Source: Camelus dromedarius
Lineage: Eukaryota
Length of the DNA stretch: 64,000 nt
Direction of reading: 5' to 3'
NCBI RefSeq assembly: GCF_036321535.1
Contig: NC_087472.1
Location: forward strand, 92,258,001 to 92,322,000
The position numbers and the translations under genes were made by a program. The notes beneath the pieces are model-generated. The model was given only the letters and a program-made list of their open reading frames with translations. It searched no databases and was not told the origin of the DNA. Shown one piece after another: positions 2,930 to 54,424 of the stretch (the first letter of the stretch is position 1; every line of letters starts with the position of its first letter).

Positions 2930-3130
2930 AATTTCTGGTGTACAGTATAATACTTCAGACATACATTAACGTACATATATTTGTTTTCATATTCTTTTTC
3001 ACTATTAAGTTACTACAAGATATTGAACATAGTTCCCTGTGCTATACAGTATGAACTTGTTTATCTATTTTATATATATTAGTCAGTATCTGCAAATCTC
3101 AAACTCCCAGTTTATCCCATCCCATCCCCT
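2930..3130 (-). mobile_element. L1 3' UTR fragment related to the young camelid family
   Basis: Reverse complement resembles the 3' UTR of the + strand copies (tactgtatagcacagggaac, gatactgac..atataaaatagataaacaag). Confidence 0.8.
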
Positions 3131-5048: not shown

Positions 5049-5790
5049 GGAACCCTCCTACACTGCTGGTGGGAATGCAGTTTGGTGCAGTCACTGTGGA
5101 AAACAGTATGGAGATTCCTCAAAAGACTAGGAATAGACTTACAATATGACCTAGTAAACCGCTCCTGGGCATATATCCAGAAGGAACCCTACTTCAAAAA
5201 GACACCCCTCCCCCAAAAAAAGACACCCAATGTTCATAGCAGCACTATTTACAATAGCCAAGACATGGAAACAGCCTAAATGTCCATCGACAGATGACTG
5301 GATAAAGAAGAGGTGGTATATTTATACAATGGAATACTATTCAGCCATAAAAAAGACAGCATAATGCCATTTGCAGCAACATGGTGTCCCTGAAGAATGT
5401 TATTCTAAGTGAAGCAAGCCAGAAAGAGAAAGAATATATGAGATCGCTCATATGCAGAATCTAAAAAAAAAAAAAGAACATAAATACAAAACAGAAACAG
5501 ACTCATAGACATAGAATACAAATTTGTGGTTGCAAAGGGGAAGGGGGTGGGAAAGGACAGAATAGGATTTCAAAATTTGTAGATACTGACAGGGATATGC
5601 AGAATCGATAAATAAGATTATACTGTATAGCACAGGGAAATATATATTAGATCTTGTGGTAGCTCACAGCGAAAAAAAAATGTGACAATGAACATATGCA
5701 AGTTCTTGTATAACTGAAAAATTGTGCTCCACGCTGGAATTTGACACAATATTGTAAAATGACTATAACTCAATAAAAATGTTAAAAAAA
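5049..5790 (+). mobile_element. 5'-truncated young camelid-type L1 (ORF2 C-terminus + 3' UTR)
   Basis: ORF2 C-terminal motifs [19 protein letters not shown], and the 3' UTR shared with the other copies. 17-bp TSD aaaatccaagcc(t/c)ttgg at 5034-5050 and 5787-5803. Confidence 0.93.
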
Positions 5791-8700: not shown

Positions 8701-10883
8701 AAAATGTTAGCTATATTGCTTAGGCATACATTATCAGCTAGCATAACTTTTTTAAAAAGACAAGAAAACAAATAACGTAAAAGTCATGATGGCATTACCA
8801 TAATCAGTAGAAGGGAAGGAGTTTATATTCAGAAGGGTATGCAGAGGACTTCTGTGATGCCCACAATGTTCTCTTCATCTACGTGGGTTCATTTGATGTT
8901 AAATATCTGCATATTTATATTTTATGTACTTTGTTATGTCCTATTATTAAATGAAAACAAACAAGTAAAGAAATATGGGCTGGATTATGGATTTCTTAGT
9001 AGTATTAAAAACTATACCTAAAGAGAGGTGAACAATATATTTACGGAAAAAAATATGTATGTAAAAGAATGTTAAACAGCTTTATGTAGGACTTTTTGCA
9101 TAGAATACTTAGAATGATGAAAACAGAAATATCTTCCAATAAAAATCTACTGACACTTGTCCAGAAAGGGAAGCTAATATGGTATAATATAGATTCAAGA
9201 ATAGAAAAGAACTTGATAAACTGGAAGACATGTTAAAAACAAACATGAAACAACACAGCTAGCTTTACATGTGAAACAAGGAGATAAAGACTTAATTCTA
9301 TTTTTAAAAAATGAGAATGAAGCAATCTTAACAGGAAAATTCAGTCCTTTATTTGCATCTAAAAGTTCAACTACAGGCAGGCACTTGACTTAACAATTAA
9401 TATAAGGAAGATGATTTTGACTTAAAATGCAATACAGAGCAGAAATGTAATATAGAAAAATTTTAAAAGGTTGATGTAATACACAGTAATGTTAACAAAA
9501 GTAAATAAAGTATGGGATTTGGATTGAGGCAGTTATTCCAACACTATTTTTCTACTTTTCGTGTGACAAGGTATCAATTTGCCCAATGTAAACACAATTT
9601 AAGAATGAAATATGTCCATGATTTTGAATTAATTCATTCAAGAATGCACATCTACTGAGTGGCTACTATGGGTCAGACATGCTAGGTAATCACTGAGTTT
9701 GAGAACACCAAGATGAAATGATATTATTGCTTTTGGTTTCAGTTTCCACATGTAAATAGCTTGCAAGTCATCACTCCTATTGTTACAAAAAGAAGCTAAA
9801 AATCAATAGCTTTTCTTAGACCTCTAAGAGAACTGAGGTTTTGGGGCAAAGAGCCACCCCCAAATTTGGAAACACAGATCAACCCAAAGGGTCACAGCTG
9901 AGACCTGTTTATTTGGAGAAGCCACTGGAGCCAGAAATTCCATCAGCAACCATCAGAATCAGACTCAGAAAAGACATAAATATTAAAATGATCAGACAGG
10001 GAATTTAAAATAACTATATTTAATGTCTTAAGTGCTCTAATGGAAAAATACAGATACTGTGCAAAAACAGATGGATAATTTAAACACAGAAATGGAAATT
10101 CTTAGCAAGAATCAAAAGGAAATGTAAGAAATTAAAACACTGTGACAGAAATGAAGATTGTCTTTGATGGGCACATCAGTATACTGAACATAGCCAAGTT
10201 AAGACTTAGTTACCTTAAAGATGGGTCAATAGAAGCTTCATAAATCAAAATGCAAAAAGAGAAAAGAATGAAAAAAATGTTAACATAATATTCAAGACCT
10301 GTGGATAATTTCAAAAGGCATAATACATGTATAATTATAATACTAGAAAGAGAAGAAAGAATGGACCAAAAGAAATACTTGATATAATAAAGGCCATGGA
10401 ATTTCCAAAATTAATGACAGACACCAAACAAGAAAGCTCAGAAAACACCAAGCAGGATAAGTAACAAAATTACTACATCTAGACATATTTTCAACCTGCA
10501 GAAAAACAAATAGAAAATCTTGAAAAAAAACACAGGAAATTGACATATCTATAGAGGAACAAGGGTAAGAATCAGAGTGAACCCCTTCTCAAAAAACATT
10601 CAAGAAATAAGAGAGTGAAGTGGAGTATTTAATGCAGTGAAAAATAAAGGGACTTTTGGACAAACAAGCCTGAAGGAATTTATCATCACCAGACCTTCAT
10701 TGCAAGAAATGTTAATATAAGCTATTCAGGAGGAGGAAAATGTATAGGTCAGAAACTTGAATCTACATAGAAATTAAGAGTGTCGTAGAATCAGTAAATG
10801 AGGGTAAAATAACATCTTTACCTTATTATAAATTGACCTAAAAGACAACTATTTGTCTAAAGTAATAAGAATATATTGGGTGA

Positions 10884-11835
10884 ATCCAAAAATGGGCAGA
10901 AGACCTAAACAAGCAATTCTCCAAGGAAGAAATACAAATGATCAATAGGCACATGAAAAAATGCTCAAGATCACTAATTATCAGAGAAATGCAAATCAAA
11001 ACTACAATGAGGTATCACCTCACACCAGTCAGAACGGCCATCATTCAAAAGTCCACAAATGACAAATTCTGGAGAGGCTGTGGAGAAAAGGGAACCCTCC
11101 AACACTGCTGGTGGGAATGCAGTCTGGTGTAGCCACTGTGGAAAACAGTATGGAGATTCCTCAAAAGACTAGGAATAGACTTACCATATGACCCAGGAAT
11201 CCCGCTCCTGGGCATACATCCAGAAGGAACCTTACTTCAAAATGATACCTGCACCCCAATGTTCATAGAAGCACTATTTACAATAGCCAAGACATGGAAA
11301 CAGCCTAAATGTCCATCAGCAGGTGACTGGATAAAGAAGATGTGGTATATTTATACAATGGAATATAATTCTGCCATAAAACCAACCGACAACATAACGC
11401 CATTTGCAGCAACATGGATGTCCCTGGAGAATGTCATTCTAAGTCAAGTAAGCCAGAAAGAGAAAGAAAAATACCATATGAGATCGCTCATATGTGGAAT
11501 CTTAAAAAAAGAAAAAGAACATAAACACAAAACAGAAACAGACTCATAGACATAGAATACAAACTTGTGATTGCCAAGGGGGCAGGGGGTGGGAAGGGAT
11601 AGACTGGGATTTTAAAATGTAGAATAGATAAACAAGATTATACTGCATAGCACAGGGAAATATAAACAAGATCTTGTGGTAGCTCACAGTGAAAAAAAAA
11701 ATGTGACAATGAATATATGTGTGTTCATGTATAACTGAAAAATTGTGCTCTACACTGGAATTTGACACAACATTGTAAAATGACTATAACTCAATAAAAA
11801 ATGTTAAAAATAAAATATATAAAAATAAATAAAAA
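10884..11835 (+). mobile_element. 5'-truncated young camelid-type L1 nested in an old L1
   Basis: [25 protein letters not shown] and [11 protein letters not shown] motifs with an A-rich tail. TSD aagaa(t/c)atattgggtga at 10867-10883 and 11836-11852. Confidence 0.94.
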
Positions 11836-13729
11836 AAGAACATATTGGGTGATTATAGCATATGGATAAGTGAAATGAATGATAGCAATGTCATAAAGGA
11901 TGAGAGGGAAGAAGTAGGAATATTTTCTAGTAAGGTACCTGCACAACACACAAAGAGGTATGGTGTTTCTTAAGGGTGGTCTTAGATTAGTTAAAAATAT
12001 GTATAAAAATATCCAAGGCAACCACTAAAATTTTTTTAAATAAGAAAAATTTATATTAACAAAGGAGAGATAAAGTAGAACCATATAAAATGTTCAATTA
12101 AAACCAGAGAATGCAGAGAGGGAAAAAAAGAAGTTCAATGAAATGAAAACACTGACAAACATGAATCTGGCAATTTCAATAATCACTTTCAATGTAAGTA
12201 ATCTAACCATATTAATTACAACAAAGAGAATATCAAAATGGATAAAAAATTAAGATCTAACCATGCTCTCTATAAGAAACCTACTTTAAAATTAAGAACC
12301 AGATAGGTTAAAAGTAAAGGGATAAAGAAAGATACACCATGCTAACATTATTCAAAAGAAAGGTTGGTATATTAATTCAGACAAAGCTGACTTCAGAGCA
12401 AGGAAAATATGAATAAAGAGGGACATTGCATAATGACAAAGAGATCAATTCTCCAAAAAGTCATAATAACCCTAAATACATATGCACCTAACAATAGAAC
12501 ATGAAAACTGTGAGGCAAAAACTTACAGAATTGGAAGGATAAACAGGCAAATCCACTACTAAAGTTGGAGATTTCAACACTACTTTCAGTAACTGAAAGA
12601 TCAAGCAAGCAGAAGATCAGTAAGGATACAGCTGATTTGAACAACACTATAAGTAAACTTTATTTAACTGACATTTAAAGAATTCCAATCTAACAATAGC
12701 AAAATATACATTCCTCTCAATCTCTCACAGGACATTTGCCATGAGAGATCACATTCTAGTTCATAAAATACACGTTAACAAATTTTTAAAAATAGAAATC
12801 ATACAAAGTGTGTGCCCAGATCACAAAGAAAATAAACTAGAAATCAGTAAGAGACAAATAGCTGGGAAAGTCACCAAATGTTTAGAAATTAACACATTTC
12901 TAAATAACACAGGGGTCAAAGAATGATTCTCAAGAGAAATTTTAAAATATTTTGAACAAAATGAAAATGTAACTTATCAAAATTTGTGGGATACAGCAAA
13001 AGCAGTGTTTAAAAGAAATTTATATAATTAAGTCTATGTTTTAGAAAAGAAGAAAACTCAAATAACACCTTAAACCTCTGCTCTGTGAAAGTCATTGTTT
13101 TAAAAAAAAATCAAAGGAAAAGCTACAGACTGGGAAAAATATTTGCAAAACGTACATCTCAAGAAGGAGTTGTATCAAAAATATACAAAAACTTCTTAAA
13201 ACTGGGCAACAAAAAAGCAAACATCCCAGTTAAAAAGGGAGGTAAATATCTGAACAGACACTAGACCAAGTAAGATATACAAAAGGTAAACAAGCACATA
13301 AAAACATGTTCAAAATAATTAATCATCAGAAATTGGCAATTAAAAAATGAGATACCACTACAGACCTATTGGAATGGTAAAATCCAAACAATAGAGGTCT
13401 GATTGGTGGAAGGATGCAGAACAACTGGAATTCTTCATTGTTTACAGAAATGCAAAATGGTACAGCTACTTTAGAAGACAGTTTGGCACCTTCCCACAAA
13501 GCTAAATATAATCTTCCCATATACTCTAGAAATTATATTCCTAGGTATTTTTTCAACTGATTTGAAAACTTAGGTCCACAGGAAAACCTGCACAATAATG
13601 CGTATAGTAGCTTTACTCATAATCTCCCCAAACTGGAAGCACCCAAGATGCACCATTCAAAAGAAAATGGACAAATTATAGTACAGCCACACAGTGTAAT
13701 GTTACTGTGATAGAAATAAATGAGCTATT

Positions 13730-29717: not shown

Positions 29718-30312
29718 TTTTTTAAACTGAGGTAAAAGTAACATAATACAAAATTAACCATTAACCATTTGAAAGTGCACAGTTGTAATTTTGTACATTC
29801 ATTATGTTGTGCAGCCCTCACCTTTATCTAATTCTAAGACAGTCTCATCATTCCAAAAGGAAACCCATACCTGTGAGCAATCACTCCCCATTTCCCCATC
29901 CCCACAGCCCTTGACAACCACCAATCTGCATTCTGTCTTTATAGATTTGCTTATTTGGAATACTTCACATAAAAGGAATCATACAACATGTGAACTTTTG
30001 CATCTGTTTTCTTTCACTTAGCATAACATGTTCAAGATTCATCCATGTTGTAGTATGTATCTATACTTCATTTCTTTTTTTGGCTAAACAATAGCCCATT
30101 GTATGGATATATCACATTTAGTTGATTTGCGCATAATCTGACGGACATTTGGATTTGTTTTCACATTTTGGCTATTGCAAATAATACAGCTATGAACATT
30201 CATGTACAAGAATTTCTTTGAGTCTCTTCTTTCAATAATTCTGGGTACCTATCTAGGAGTGAAAATGTTGAACCATATGGTTATTCTATGCTTAACTTCT
30301 TAACGAATCAGG
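29718..30312 (-). mobile_element. L1MB-like 3' fragment
   Basis: ttcacttagcataacatgttcaagattcatccatgttgtag..cattgtatggatatatcacatt..gctatgaacattcatgtacaag. Confidence 0.8.
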
Positions 30313-32221: not shown

Positions 32222-32990
32222 TACAATACTACTTCGCACCCATTAGGATAGCTATTATTTAAAAAAAAAAAAAAAGGAAAACTACAAGTTCTGGCAAGGA
32301 TATGAAGAAACTGGAACCATTGTGCATTGCTGGTGGGAATGTAAAATGGTGCAGCTGCTGTGGAAAACCCATTTGGTAGTTCCTCAAAAAGTTAAACACA
32401 GAATTACCATATAATCCAGCAATTCCACTCCTATGTATATATGTAAAAGAACTGAAAGTAGGTACATAAACAAATACTTGTACACCAATATTCATAATAC
32501 TGTTACTCACAAGAGCCAAAGGCAACAACTCAAATGTCCACCAAAAGATGAAAGGATAAACAAAATGCAGTAAATACATACAATAGAATATTATTTACAC
32601 TTTAAAAGGAATGAAATTTTGATACATGTTACAACATGGACGAAGCTTGAAAACATTATAAGTGAGACACAAAAGGATAAATATTGTCTGACTCCGTTTA
32701 TATAATGTACCTATAATAAGCAAGTTCATAGAGATAAAAGTAGAAGTTACCCTTGGCTGGGGGAGAGGAAGGAATGGGGAGTTATTGTTTAATGGGTAGA
32801 GTTTCTGTTTGGGATGATGAAAAATTTCTGGAAAATAGGTAGTAGTGAGCAACACTGTGAATGTAATTAATGCCACTAAATTGTACAATTAAATTTTATG
32901 CTATGTCTTTTACAACAATAAAAAAATTAAATTTTACACTTTACATGGTTGACTCTCATGGTATGTGAATTATATCTCAATAAAGCTATT
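32222..32990 (+). mobile_element. L1MB-like 3' fragment
   Basis: gcattgctggtgggaatgtaaaatggtgcagctgctgtggaaa..gaattaccatataatccagcaattccactcct..ggagttattgtttaatggg. Confidence 0.85.
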
Positions 32991-36900: not shown

Positions 36901-37459
36901 TGGACCAATTAACACCTCAACAACTATGTTTGAGACTGCTTGTTTCCTCACACCTTCAACTAACCTAGTAAGCTACAAAGTGCTTTCATCTATGACAATC
37001 TAATAGGTAAAACTACAGTATTTTATTTTAGTCTTAAATTGCAATTCTGTTATTTGTGATGTTGACTATTTTTCATATACTTAAATAGTACTTGTATTCC
37101 TTATTTTGTAGACTGTCATCTTGATTTTTTTTCCTCTTGAGTTAATGATCTGATTTTCATTAATTTGTAGGAGGCCTTTGAGGCCAAACTCTAAGATGGG
37201 AAATACTAAGAAATAATTTGAGACCAGGTAGATAAGAGCACTGCTTGCTGGGAAATCAAAAGAAAGGACCATACAAAGAGCACAGGACCAGAGGTGGTCA
37301 TCCCTTCTCAGTAAGAGTGAAATAACTTTGAGAGGAAACATGTCCTTTGAAGACTTAGTGGTGAAGGGAAAAAAAGGAACTGAATGAAGATAAGGGGCTC
37401 TAATGAAAGAAGATTGTGACATAGAATCAGAAGAAATCAGACTTTCTGAAAAAAAAATG

Positions 37460-38700
37460 ACTTAAACATAAGACAGGATACAGTGGACCTCCTGGAAGAG
37501 AATATGTGCGGAACGTTGTCTGACATACATCTCGGGGGTGTTCTCCTGGGGCAGTCTGCCCAGGCAACAGAAATGGGGGCAGGAATGGACGAATGGAACC
37601 TAACTGGGCTTGCGGACTTCTGCACAGCGAAGGAAAGCATGAGTAGGACAAGGGGACAACCTACAGAATGGGAGAAAATTTCTGCAAATGAGACCAACAA
37701 GGGCTTGATCTCCAGAGTGTATGGGTAGCTCATACGACTTAATAAGAAAAAAACAAACAACCCAATCCAACAGTGGGCAAAAGACCTAAGAAGGCAGTTC
37801 TCCAGAGAGGAAATGCAGGTGATCAATGGGCACATGAAAGAATGCTCTGTGTCACTAATTGTCAGAGGAATGCAGGTCAGAGCTGTGGTGAGGTGTCGCC
37901 TCGCACCGGTCGGGGTGGTCATCATTCAGAAGTCTACGGATGACAGGTGCTGGAAAGGCTATAGAGAGGGGGGAACCCTCCTACGCTGCTGGTGAGAGTG
38001 TGGTTTGGTGCAGCTGCTGTGGAGAACAGTATGGAGATTCCTCGGGGGACTGGGAATAGACTTACCATATGACCCAGGAATCCAACTCCTGGGCATATAT
38101 CCAGAAAGAGCCCTACTTCAAAATGACACCTGCACCCTAATGTTCATATCAGCACTATTTACAATAGCCAAGACATGGAAGCAGCCTAAATGTCCATCAA
38201 CAGATGACTGGATAAAGAAGAGGTGGTATATTTATACAATGGAATAGTCTTCAGCCATAAAAACTGACAACATAACGCCATTTGCAGCAACATGGATGTT
38301 CCTGGAGAATGTCATTCTAAGTGAAGTAAGCCAGAAAGAGAAAGAAAAATACCATATGAGATCACTTATATGTGGAATCTAAAACAAAACCAAACAAAAC
38401 ATATATACAAAACAGAAACAGACTCATAGACATGGAATACAAACTTGTGGTTGCCAAGGGGGCCGGGGGTGGGAAGGCACAGACTGGGATTTTAAAATGT
38501 AGAATAGATAAATAAGATTATACTGTATAGCACAGAGAAATATACACAAGATCTTATGGTAGCTCACAGCGAAAAAAAATTTGACAATGAATATGCATAG
38601 GTTCATGCATAACTGAAAAATTGTGCTCTACATTGGAATTTGACACAACATTGTAAAATGACTATAACTCAATAAAAAATGTTTCAAAAAATAAAATAAA
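37460..38700 (+). mobile_element. 5'-truncated young camelid-type L1 with A-to-G hypermutated 5' half
   Basis: Colinear with the copy at 10884-11835 (offset 26881). Dense A>G changes up to 38052, ordinary divergence afterwards. Probable short TSD aaaa(a/t)aaaatg at 37449-37459 and 38693-38703. Confidence 0.94.
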
Positions 38701-39139
38701 ATGTACAATTTGTTACATAATATCACCACAACCACAACTAAAAATGGCATCATAATGGCAGCAAAATAAGGTGATCTTGAAATATGAAATCAATTAAGCC
38801 ATGCAATCCCCCTACCCTAGCCCCTTCAAAGTGTCTTCTATTATTGGTTCAGGAGCGGAAAAGCCCAAAAAATGAAAATTCAGTGGATAAAACCACTGCA
38901 AAACACTTCTGCACACATACATGTCCACACTTGCACAAAGCAGAAGGAAATTTTAACTTGACACTCCAACAGGAATTTTATACTTAAATAATCAATTGCA
39001 GAATTGGAAGAAAACTATGAATCATAAACTCTTTTTAAAACTTCAAAGACAGAAGAACAAACAACATGAAGATATGAAAAGAGAGCTAGTCAAACTCAGG
39101 AGAGACAGGAAATGAACAAGAATTAAACTACAAAGTGCC

Positions 39140-50867: not shown

Positions 50868-51205
50868 AAAAAAATGAACATAAATACAAAACAAAAACAG
50901 ACTCACAGACATAGAATACAAACTTGTGGTTGCCAAGGGGGTAGGGGGTGGGAACGGACAGACTGGGATTTCAAAATTTGTAGATACTGACAGGCATATG
51001 TAGAATAGATAAACAAGATTATACTGTATAGCACAGGGAATATATACAAGATCTTGTGGTAGCTCACAGAGAAAAAAAAGTGACAATGAATATATGTATT
51101 TTCTTGAATAACTGAAAAATTGTGCTCTACACTGGAATTTGACCCAACATTGTAAAAGGACTATAACTCAATAAAAAATGTTAAAAAATAAAAGGCAACC
51201 AAAAA
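50868..51205 (+). mobile_element. Young camelid-type L1, 3' UTR only
   Basis: Matches the 3' UTR of the other copies (acagactca.agacatagaatacaaacttgtggttgcc ... gactataactcaataaaaaatgtt), followed by an A tail. Confidence 0.92.
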
Positions 51206-54089: not shown

Positions 54090-54424
54090 TGTTTTATTTT
54101 TATACAGTTTAAAGGTCATTTTCCATTTACAGTTATTACAAAATATTGACTATATTCCCCGTGTTTTACAATACATCCTTGAGCCTGTGTTATAACCAAT
54201 GGTTTGTACCTCCCACTCTCCCTCCCCTCCCCCTGACACTGGTAACCACTAATTTGTTCCCTGTATCTATGAGTCTGCTTTTTTGTTACATTCATTAGTT
54301 CGTTGTATTTTTTAGATTCCACCTATAAGTGATGCAATACAGTATTTGTCTTTCTCTGACTGACTTAATATCACTTAGCATAATGCCCTCCAAGTCTATC
54401 CATGTTGCTGCAAATGGCAAAATT
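54090..54424 (-). mobile_element. Older artiodactyl-type L1 3' end
   Basis: ttttccatttacagttattacaaaatattgactatattcccc..ttagattccacctataagtgat..cacttagcataatgccctccaagtctatccatgttgctgcaaatggcaaaattt. Confidence 0.85.

Follow-up and report, generated by a model that had tools for sequence, protein, structure and literature searches.

A 5′-truncated L1 (LINE-1) insertion in the dromedary genome carries a sharp-ended tract of about 580 bp in which 36% of the adenosines of its family have become guanosines on the L1 sense strand. It lies in a 64,000-nt stretch of Camelus dromedarius DNA (NC_087472.1, 92,258,001 to 92,322,000, forward strand), hereafter the window, and occupies 92295456-92296704 in assembly coordinates (C37). 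The L1 identity of the insertion, its orientation and truncation, the strand specificity and ends of the A>G tract, the preference for certain neighbouring bases and the presence of the sequence in many sequencing runs were all observed directly. From these we infer a former RNA duplex, an editing enzyme and editing before insertion, and consider it highly probable that the tract arose by ADAR hyperediting of a sense L1 RNA in a long duplex, followed by target-primed reverse transcription. Most likely, a heavily edited L1 RNA was reverse-transcribed into the germline and persists there as this DNA fossil.

The element was compared with 29 other copies from the 2.3-Gb genome assembly (L002-L030), which were 84-86% identical to the window over 37456-38700. 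Upstream of 37456 these relatives continue as L1 sequence and the target does not, indicating a 5′ truncation. An ORF that begins upstream in L002 and runs into the region of the tract contained the reverse transcriptase domain RVT_1 (E = 5e-29). Three in-frame stops (37726-37728, 37993-37995 and 38245-38247) interrupt the ORF2 frame of the target, and a Pfam search with its four short ORF2-frame pieces gave no match. Homology to the 3′ end of a LINE ORF2, together with a reverse transcriptase domain in full-length relatives, identified the target as an L1 copy. It bears the L1 hallmarks of target-primed reverse transcription, namely a poly(A) signal, an A-rich tail and the 5′ truncation, and it is dead, as expected of a truncated insertion (Table 1). 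The two copies of the candidate target-site duplication are 11-mers alike at 10 of 11 bases, and they are inseparable from the A tail.

Table 1 Positions in the window of the L1 insertion, its A>G tract and the comparison copy
Feature	Position	Strand	Basis
5′-truncated L1 (LINE-1) insertion: 3′ part of ORF2, 3′ UTR and A-rich tail	37456..38704	+	29 genome copies align over 37456-38700
Candidate target-site duplication, 5′ copy, A-rich, ends in TG	37449..37459	+	3′ counterpart at 38693-38703
A>G hypermutated tract, bounded by its outermost clustered A>G changes	37476..38052	+	92/257 ancestral A's now G
Dip within the tract	37656..37755	+	6/35 non-G-preceded A's converted vs 83/181 elsewhere in the tract, Fisher p = 0.0014
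Unedited rest of the L1 copy, internal control	38053..38685	+	4/259 A's converted
AATAAA polyadenylation signal, L1 3′ end	38671..38676	+	Sequence; same place in relatives
A-rich tail of the L1 insertion	38686..38701	+	Sequence
Unedited 5′-truncated L1 copy of the same family, proxy ancestor in the first-pass annotation	10883..11817	+	95% identical to L002 over the tract part

Upstream of 37456, plain BLAST detected no L1 homology, and BLAST with A/G-collapsed or C/T-collapsed alphabets returned low-complexity noise only. In the genome this upstream flank is all but unique (two weak matches, 68-71%), and it can be compared with the tract by base composition only; G/(A+G) is 0.365 in the flank, 0.51 in the tract and 0.33 across the window. 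The window contains several further L1 3′ fragments, from this family and from older ones: they lie at 5049-5790, 10883-11817 and 50877-51193, with older fragments at 13107-13377 and 32284-32590 and, on the minus strand, at 2939-3075, 30013-30200 and 54211-54418. The copies at 10883 and 5049, the two of these that could be tested, had no A>G excess.

To reconstruct the ancestral sequence, the target, the 29 genome copies and two window copies were aligned and compared column by column, and the column majority of the 29 genome copies (≥60% agreement) was taken as the ancestor. Over 37456-38704 (+) the target differed from this majority by 97 A>G, 6 T>C, 13 G>A, 11 C>T and 19 transversions. The A>G changes were concentrated in the tract, whose 593 columns held 92 A>G, 3 T>C, 9 G>A, 6 C>T and 7 transversions; downstream, 627 columns held 4-5 A>G. 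At the 5′ truncation point the first 11 ancestral A's are unchanged, and the tract starts about 20 nt further in. Its density reaches a maximum of 6 of 7 A's in one 25-nt bin. Its 3′ end at 38052 is abrupt, with 23 of 50 A's converted in the 150 nt before it and 2 of 53 in the 150 nt after it (p = 3e-7). The strand with the A>G changes is the L1 sense strand, equivalent to the RNA template strand, and carries the AATAAA signal and the A tail.

All other differences were equally frequent in the tract (25/593) and downstream (24/627). One extra process therefore added A>G only, and both halves of the L1 copy share the same background age, corresponding to about 4% divergence. In leave-one-out comparisons over the tract columns, the 29 genome copies had 1-8 A>G each and the two window copies had none, as opposed to 92 in the target; the copy at 10883 contributed 287 tract columns with 0 A>G. 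The near-exclusive, clustered A>G on one strand is the footprint expected of ADAR, and the plus-strand G>A clusters of APOBEC3 DNA editing were not found in the tract. The dip within the tract (Table 1) may mark a place where the former duplex was bulged, gapped, unpaired or mismatched. Two side observations were made in the same alignment. The 9 G>A of the target tract compare with 0-6 in the 29 controls; two of the nine are at ancestral CpGs (37665 and 37696). Among the relatives, L030 (G000:C29:5966513-5970748) had 14 A>G vs 4 T>C in the columns matching 38053-38704, the highest of the 29 controls, which may be a mild case or chance.

The first-pass annotation, which used the copy at 10883-11171 as a proxy ancestor for 37764-38052, had claimed that the converted sites avoid a 5′ G in the manner of ADAR, with 3/22 G-preceded A's converted vs 44/95 of the others. 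With the same proxy, which gave 47 A>G and 1 T>C mismatches over this interval, we reproduced the avoidance (3/22 vs 44/91, Fisher p = 0.0034); both numerators were right and the second denominator was slightly off. The interval itself lies inside the tract and is too narrow, the whole tract being about twice its 289 bp, and only this part was seen because the proxy copy starts at 10883. Measured against the 29-copy majority over the whole of 37456-38052, the avoidance was stronger, with 3 of 42 G-preceded A's converted vs 89 of 215 others (OR 0.11, Fisher p = 6.3e-6), and in the original 289 bp it amounted to 2/21 vs 45/92 (p = 0.001).

This result was stable to the choice of ancestor and to position along the tract. 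Raising the majority threshold to 85% gave 3/42 vs 87/210 (p = 6.2e-6), and any one of the 29 copies used as sole ancestor gave p values from 2.8e-6 to 5.0e-4. After stratification into six 100-bp bins, 3 G-preceded conversions were observed vs 14.6 expected (Mantel-Haenszel, p = 4e-5), and none of 20000 shuffles of the edited labels within bins reached the observed value. Conversion by ancestral 5′ base was 19/36 for T, 54/120 for A, 16/59 for C and 3/42 for G; C exceeded G (p = 0.018) and A/T exceeded C (p = 0.0085). The count after 5′ C is probably a slight underestimate, since decay of an edited CpG to CA would hide a few edits. Among the triplets, TAG (5/6) and AAG (12/19) were converted most and GAN (3/42) least. 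The depletion of 5′ G is visible only with the ancestral 5′ neighbour, because many of the present 5′ G's are themselves converted A's; with the neighbour taken from the edited sequence, no depletion was found (G 29/79, p = 0.89). On the 3′ side, counted against the same majority, G showed a trend only (20/43 vs 72/214 for the other bases, OR 1.7, p = 0.12; G vs C, p = 0.045).

These preferences fit the published motifs of ADAR. In hyper-editing data, position -1 is depleted of G and position +1 is enriched in it (PMC4365171), and human ADAR1 and ADAR2 are described as preferring 5′ U/A over C/G and a 3′ G (PMC11276115). One trace-archive survey gives G before 7.85% of sites vs 30.3% of controls in its human ADAR set and before 5.8% vs 24% in its Xenopus set (PMC2873906). 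In the tract, 5′ G precedes 3 of the 92 edited sites (3.3%) vs 39 of the 165 unedited A's (23.6%), a depletion of the same size. The tract thus has the ADAR order of 5′ bases (U, A > C > G), which holds when stratified by position, and the order C > G hints weakly at ADAR1. The first-pass annotation had further argued for an enzymatic origin in RNA over a replication or sequencing error; the excess of 92 A>G vs 3 T>C, the restriction to the sense strand, the density and the neighbour order all support this view.

Sequencing or assembly error is unlikely. Among 31-mers sampled from 37300-38300, a share of 0.88-0.91 was present in each of 14 runs of one organism from nine studies, a set from which low-share RNA and organism B runs were left out and of which one run may be the assembly source. 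No sibling copy sharing the G's of the tract was found, the best non-self match to the tract being 80% identical among the 39 non-self matches scored of 6754 candidates; for the whole element the best non-self match was 86% among the 40 scored of 15069 candidates. Furthermore, of the six C>T changes seen in the tract, three (37886, 38001 and 38015) are at CpGs made by A>G, following the path from CA to CG to TG, so the G's are old enough in the DNA for such CpGs to have decayed.

Hyperediting before insertion would have proceeded as follows. A sense-strand L1 transcript would have formed a duplex with antisense L1 along at least about 580 nt of its ORF2 3′ region. The partner may have been carried by the same long transcript as an inverted L1 copy, or it may have been a separate antisense RNA. 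ADAR would then have deaminated about one third of the adenosines in the duplex to inosine, favouring UA and AA and avoiding GA; in long perfect duplexes, editing can reach up to about half of the A's. The I:U pairs formed in this way would loosen the duplex, and the edited RNA would have become the template for L1 target-primed reverse transcription, where inosine templates C and would leave a G at positions at which the family has A. The resulting copy, 5′-truncated at 37456-37459, would have entered the germline and would now be common in the species.

Some properties of the pairing partner can be narrowed down. No inverted L1 copy matching the tract was found in the 64-kb window, and no internal reverse complement of the tract was found in the L1 family, the longest being 21 nt in a 9-kb L1-bearing locus, so the pairing would have taken place at the source locus or in trans. 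Since the tract ends 650 nt short of the L1 3′ end, the partner probably lacked that end, unlike an ordinary 5′-truncated inverted copy. Heavy editing of ORF2 would cripple its protein, and the RNA was therefore presumably translated before editing or mobilised in trans. Further points count against ADAR as the cause: the tract is a single case, the 3′ G preference is non-significant (p = 0.12), and in one cell-culture study Sanger sequencing of >2.5 kb of L1 RNA is reported to have given no editing, ADAR1 being said there to restrict L1 without editing (PMC5224506).

Error-prone synthesis of the second strand would also place the changes on the (+) strand. With the upstream target DNA as primer, a Pol eta-type translesion polymerase could have copied the first-strand cDNA for about 600 nt, inserting G opposite T at WA motifs, before an accurate polymerase took over. 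The geometry suits this, as about 20 nt separate the 5′ junction from the start of the tract, which follows the direction of second-strand synthesis and stops abruptly, and A>G would arise on the nascent (+) strand only. WA motifs are described as Pol eta hotspots with A to G preferred (PMC4042646), and 5′ A/T was indeed favoured over the other 5′ bases in the tract (73/155 vs 19/101 converted). The frequencies and the remaining spectrum speak against it. Pol eta errors are of the order of a few per cent for T:dGTP, far below the conversion of 36% of all A's and of 45-53% at WA; other substitutions are not raised in the tract, and its transversions number only 7. The higher conversion after C (16/59) than after G (3/42) and the top triplets ending in G fit ADAR and not a plain W-versus-S rule. 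The tract shares the WA preference with the Pol eta signature and has neither the other A:T substitutions nor the error frequencies that go with this polymerase, and we consider such an origin very unlikely.

A comparable chance, and again a very small one, is given to misincorporation during first-strand synthesis, in which the L1 reverse transcriptase would have placed C opposite template A, for example in a skewed dNTP pool, after the first 650 nt and up to an abortive end seen as the 5′ truncation. The timing fits, in that synthesis starts with the unedited 3′ part and reaches the mutated part at the end, immediately before truncation, and the changes are all of one type. However, we know of no reverse transcriptase error mode that yields 36% of a single mispair without a rise in others. 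Neither is the ADAR-like dependence on the 5′ neighbour predicted, with TAG and AAG highest, and the dip at 37656-37755 followed by recovery would require the error mode to have been switched off and then on again.

Still less probable is editing of the DNA in place, by which an antisense L1 RNA would have formed an R-loop on the + DNA strand of the inserted copy and ADAR would have deaminated its deoxyadenosines. ADARs are reported to deaminate dA in DNA/RNA hybrids in vitro with their usual sequence preferences (PMC5389660). Pairing by an antisense L1 RNA in trans would be confined to the L1 part, which would account for the end of the tract near the L1 junction and for the unedited look of the upstream flank (G/(A+G) 0.365 vs 0.51 in the tract). 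Against this, about 90 dI lesions on one strand of germline DNA would have had to evade repair and be fixed together, and to our knowledge in-place germline DNA editing of this kind has no precedent. Editing of the hybrid between first-strand cDNA and RNA fares no better, as the DNA strand there is the minus strand and the changes would appear as T>C, of which the tract has only 3.

The least probable origins are non-enzymatic. Transitions are the commonest substitutions and mammalian transcribed regions have a mild excess of A>G over T>C, but ordinary divergence, a G-rich L1 subfamily, GC-biased gene conversion and an assembly or sequencing artefact are excluded by the spectrum (92 A>G vs 3 T>C with the same background divergence inside and outside the tract, where biased conversion would raise T>C equally), by the control copies, by the uniqueness of the tract G's, which occur in no other copy scored, by the run shares in 14 runs from nine studies and by the decay of CpGs that A>G had made.

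With hyperediting of the L1 RNA before insertion as the preferred origin, the closeness of the tract start to the truncation point, about 20 nt, raises the question of a causal link between the two. The L1 reverse transcriptase may have stalled at the inosine-rich stretch or at duplex remaining upstream of it; alternatively, the hyperedited RNA may have been cleaved at this point. We regard such a link as rather unlikely; if it is true, ADAR editing shortens L1 insertions besides mutating them.

The tract resembles several known systems and differs from each. ADAR hyper-editing of inverted-repeat dsRNA (Alu, SINE and L1) has the same dense one-strand A-to-G changes with G depleted at -1 and tending to rise at +1 (PMC4365171), and the hyper-edited stretches reported in animal transcriptomes are likewise hundreds of nucleotides long (PMC5663115). 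Those are RNA-versus-DNA mismatches that leave the genome untouched, whereas the G's described here are in genomic DNA and have no inverted partner in the window. ADAR-type A-to-G hypermutation is also found in retroviruses. In measles and other RNA viruses, as described for the viral case, the edited RNA is copied and the changes become heritable (PMC5075021); here the template would be the RNA of an endogenous non-LTR retrotransposon, and the product is a fixed and dead germline insertion. APOBEC3-edited LTR, L1 and Alu copies provide a further parallel, in that a deaminase marks a retroelement during copying, the hypermutated fossil integrates, and it is found by comparison with its family, as was done here (PMC4866542, PMC2873906). 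APOBEC, however, acts on minus-strand cDNA and leaves plus-strand G>A, unlike the A>G of this tract, in which G>A is at background (9). The WA mutagenesis of Pol eta in antibody somatic hypermutation shares with the tract A>G, a 5′ A/T and a strand bias (PMC4042646), but the density of the tract is an order of magnitude higher, other classes are not raised, -1 C exceeds -1 G, and +1 G is present in the top triplets.

Editing followed by copying is known in viruses (PMC5075021), and fossils of APOBEC-edited retroelements are well documented (PMC4866542, PMC2873906). Among the papers searched, we found no description of a genomic L1 copy with an ADAR-type tract, and Knisbacher and Levanon (2015, Ann N Y Acad Sci 1341:115) may treat the idea. 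According to one review, the role of ADAR in Alu evolution is not determined (PMC4982230), and an earlier survey expected the integration of edited retrotransposons to be rare (PMC2873906). The L1 tract is a well-controlled single example of a mechanism that is understood in principle and not new.

As such, it indicates that an L1 RNA heavily edited by an ADAR-type activity can still complete retrotransposition in the germline, and it does so with internal controls in the same copy. One event would have written about 90 point changes into the genome. The age of repeat copies can consequently be overestimated; the tract is 80% identical to its relatives at a background divergence of about 4%. 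Fossils of this kind record double-stranded L1 RNA and ADAR activity in the germline or early embryo, and they allow a genome-wide question to be asked, namely whether editing limits or shapes L1 insertions.
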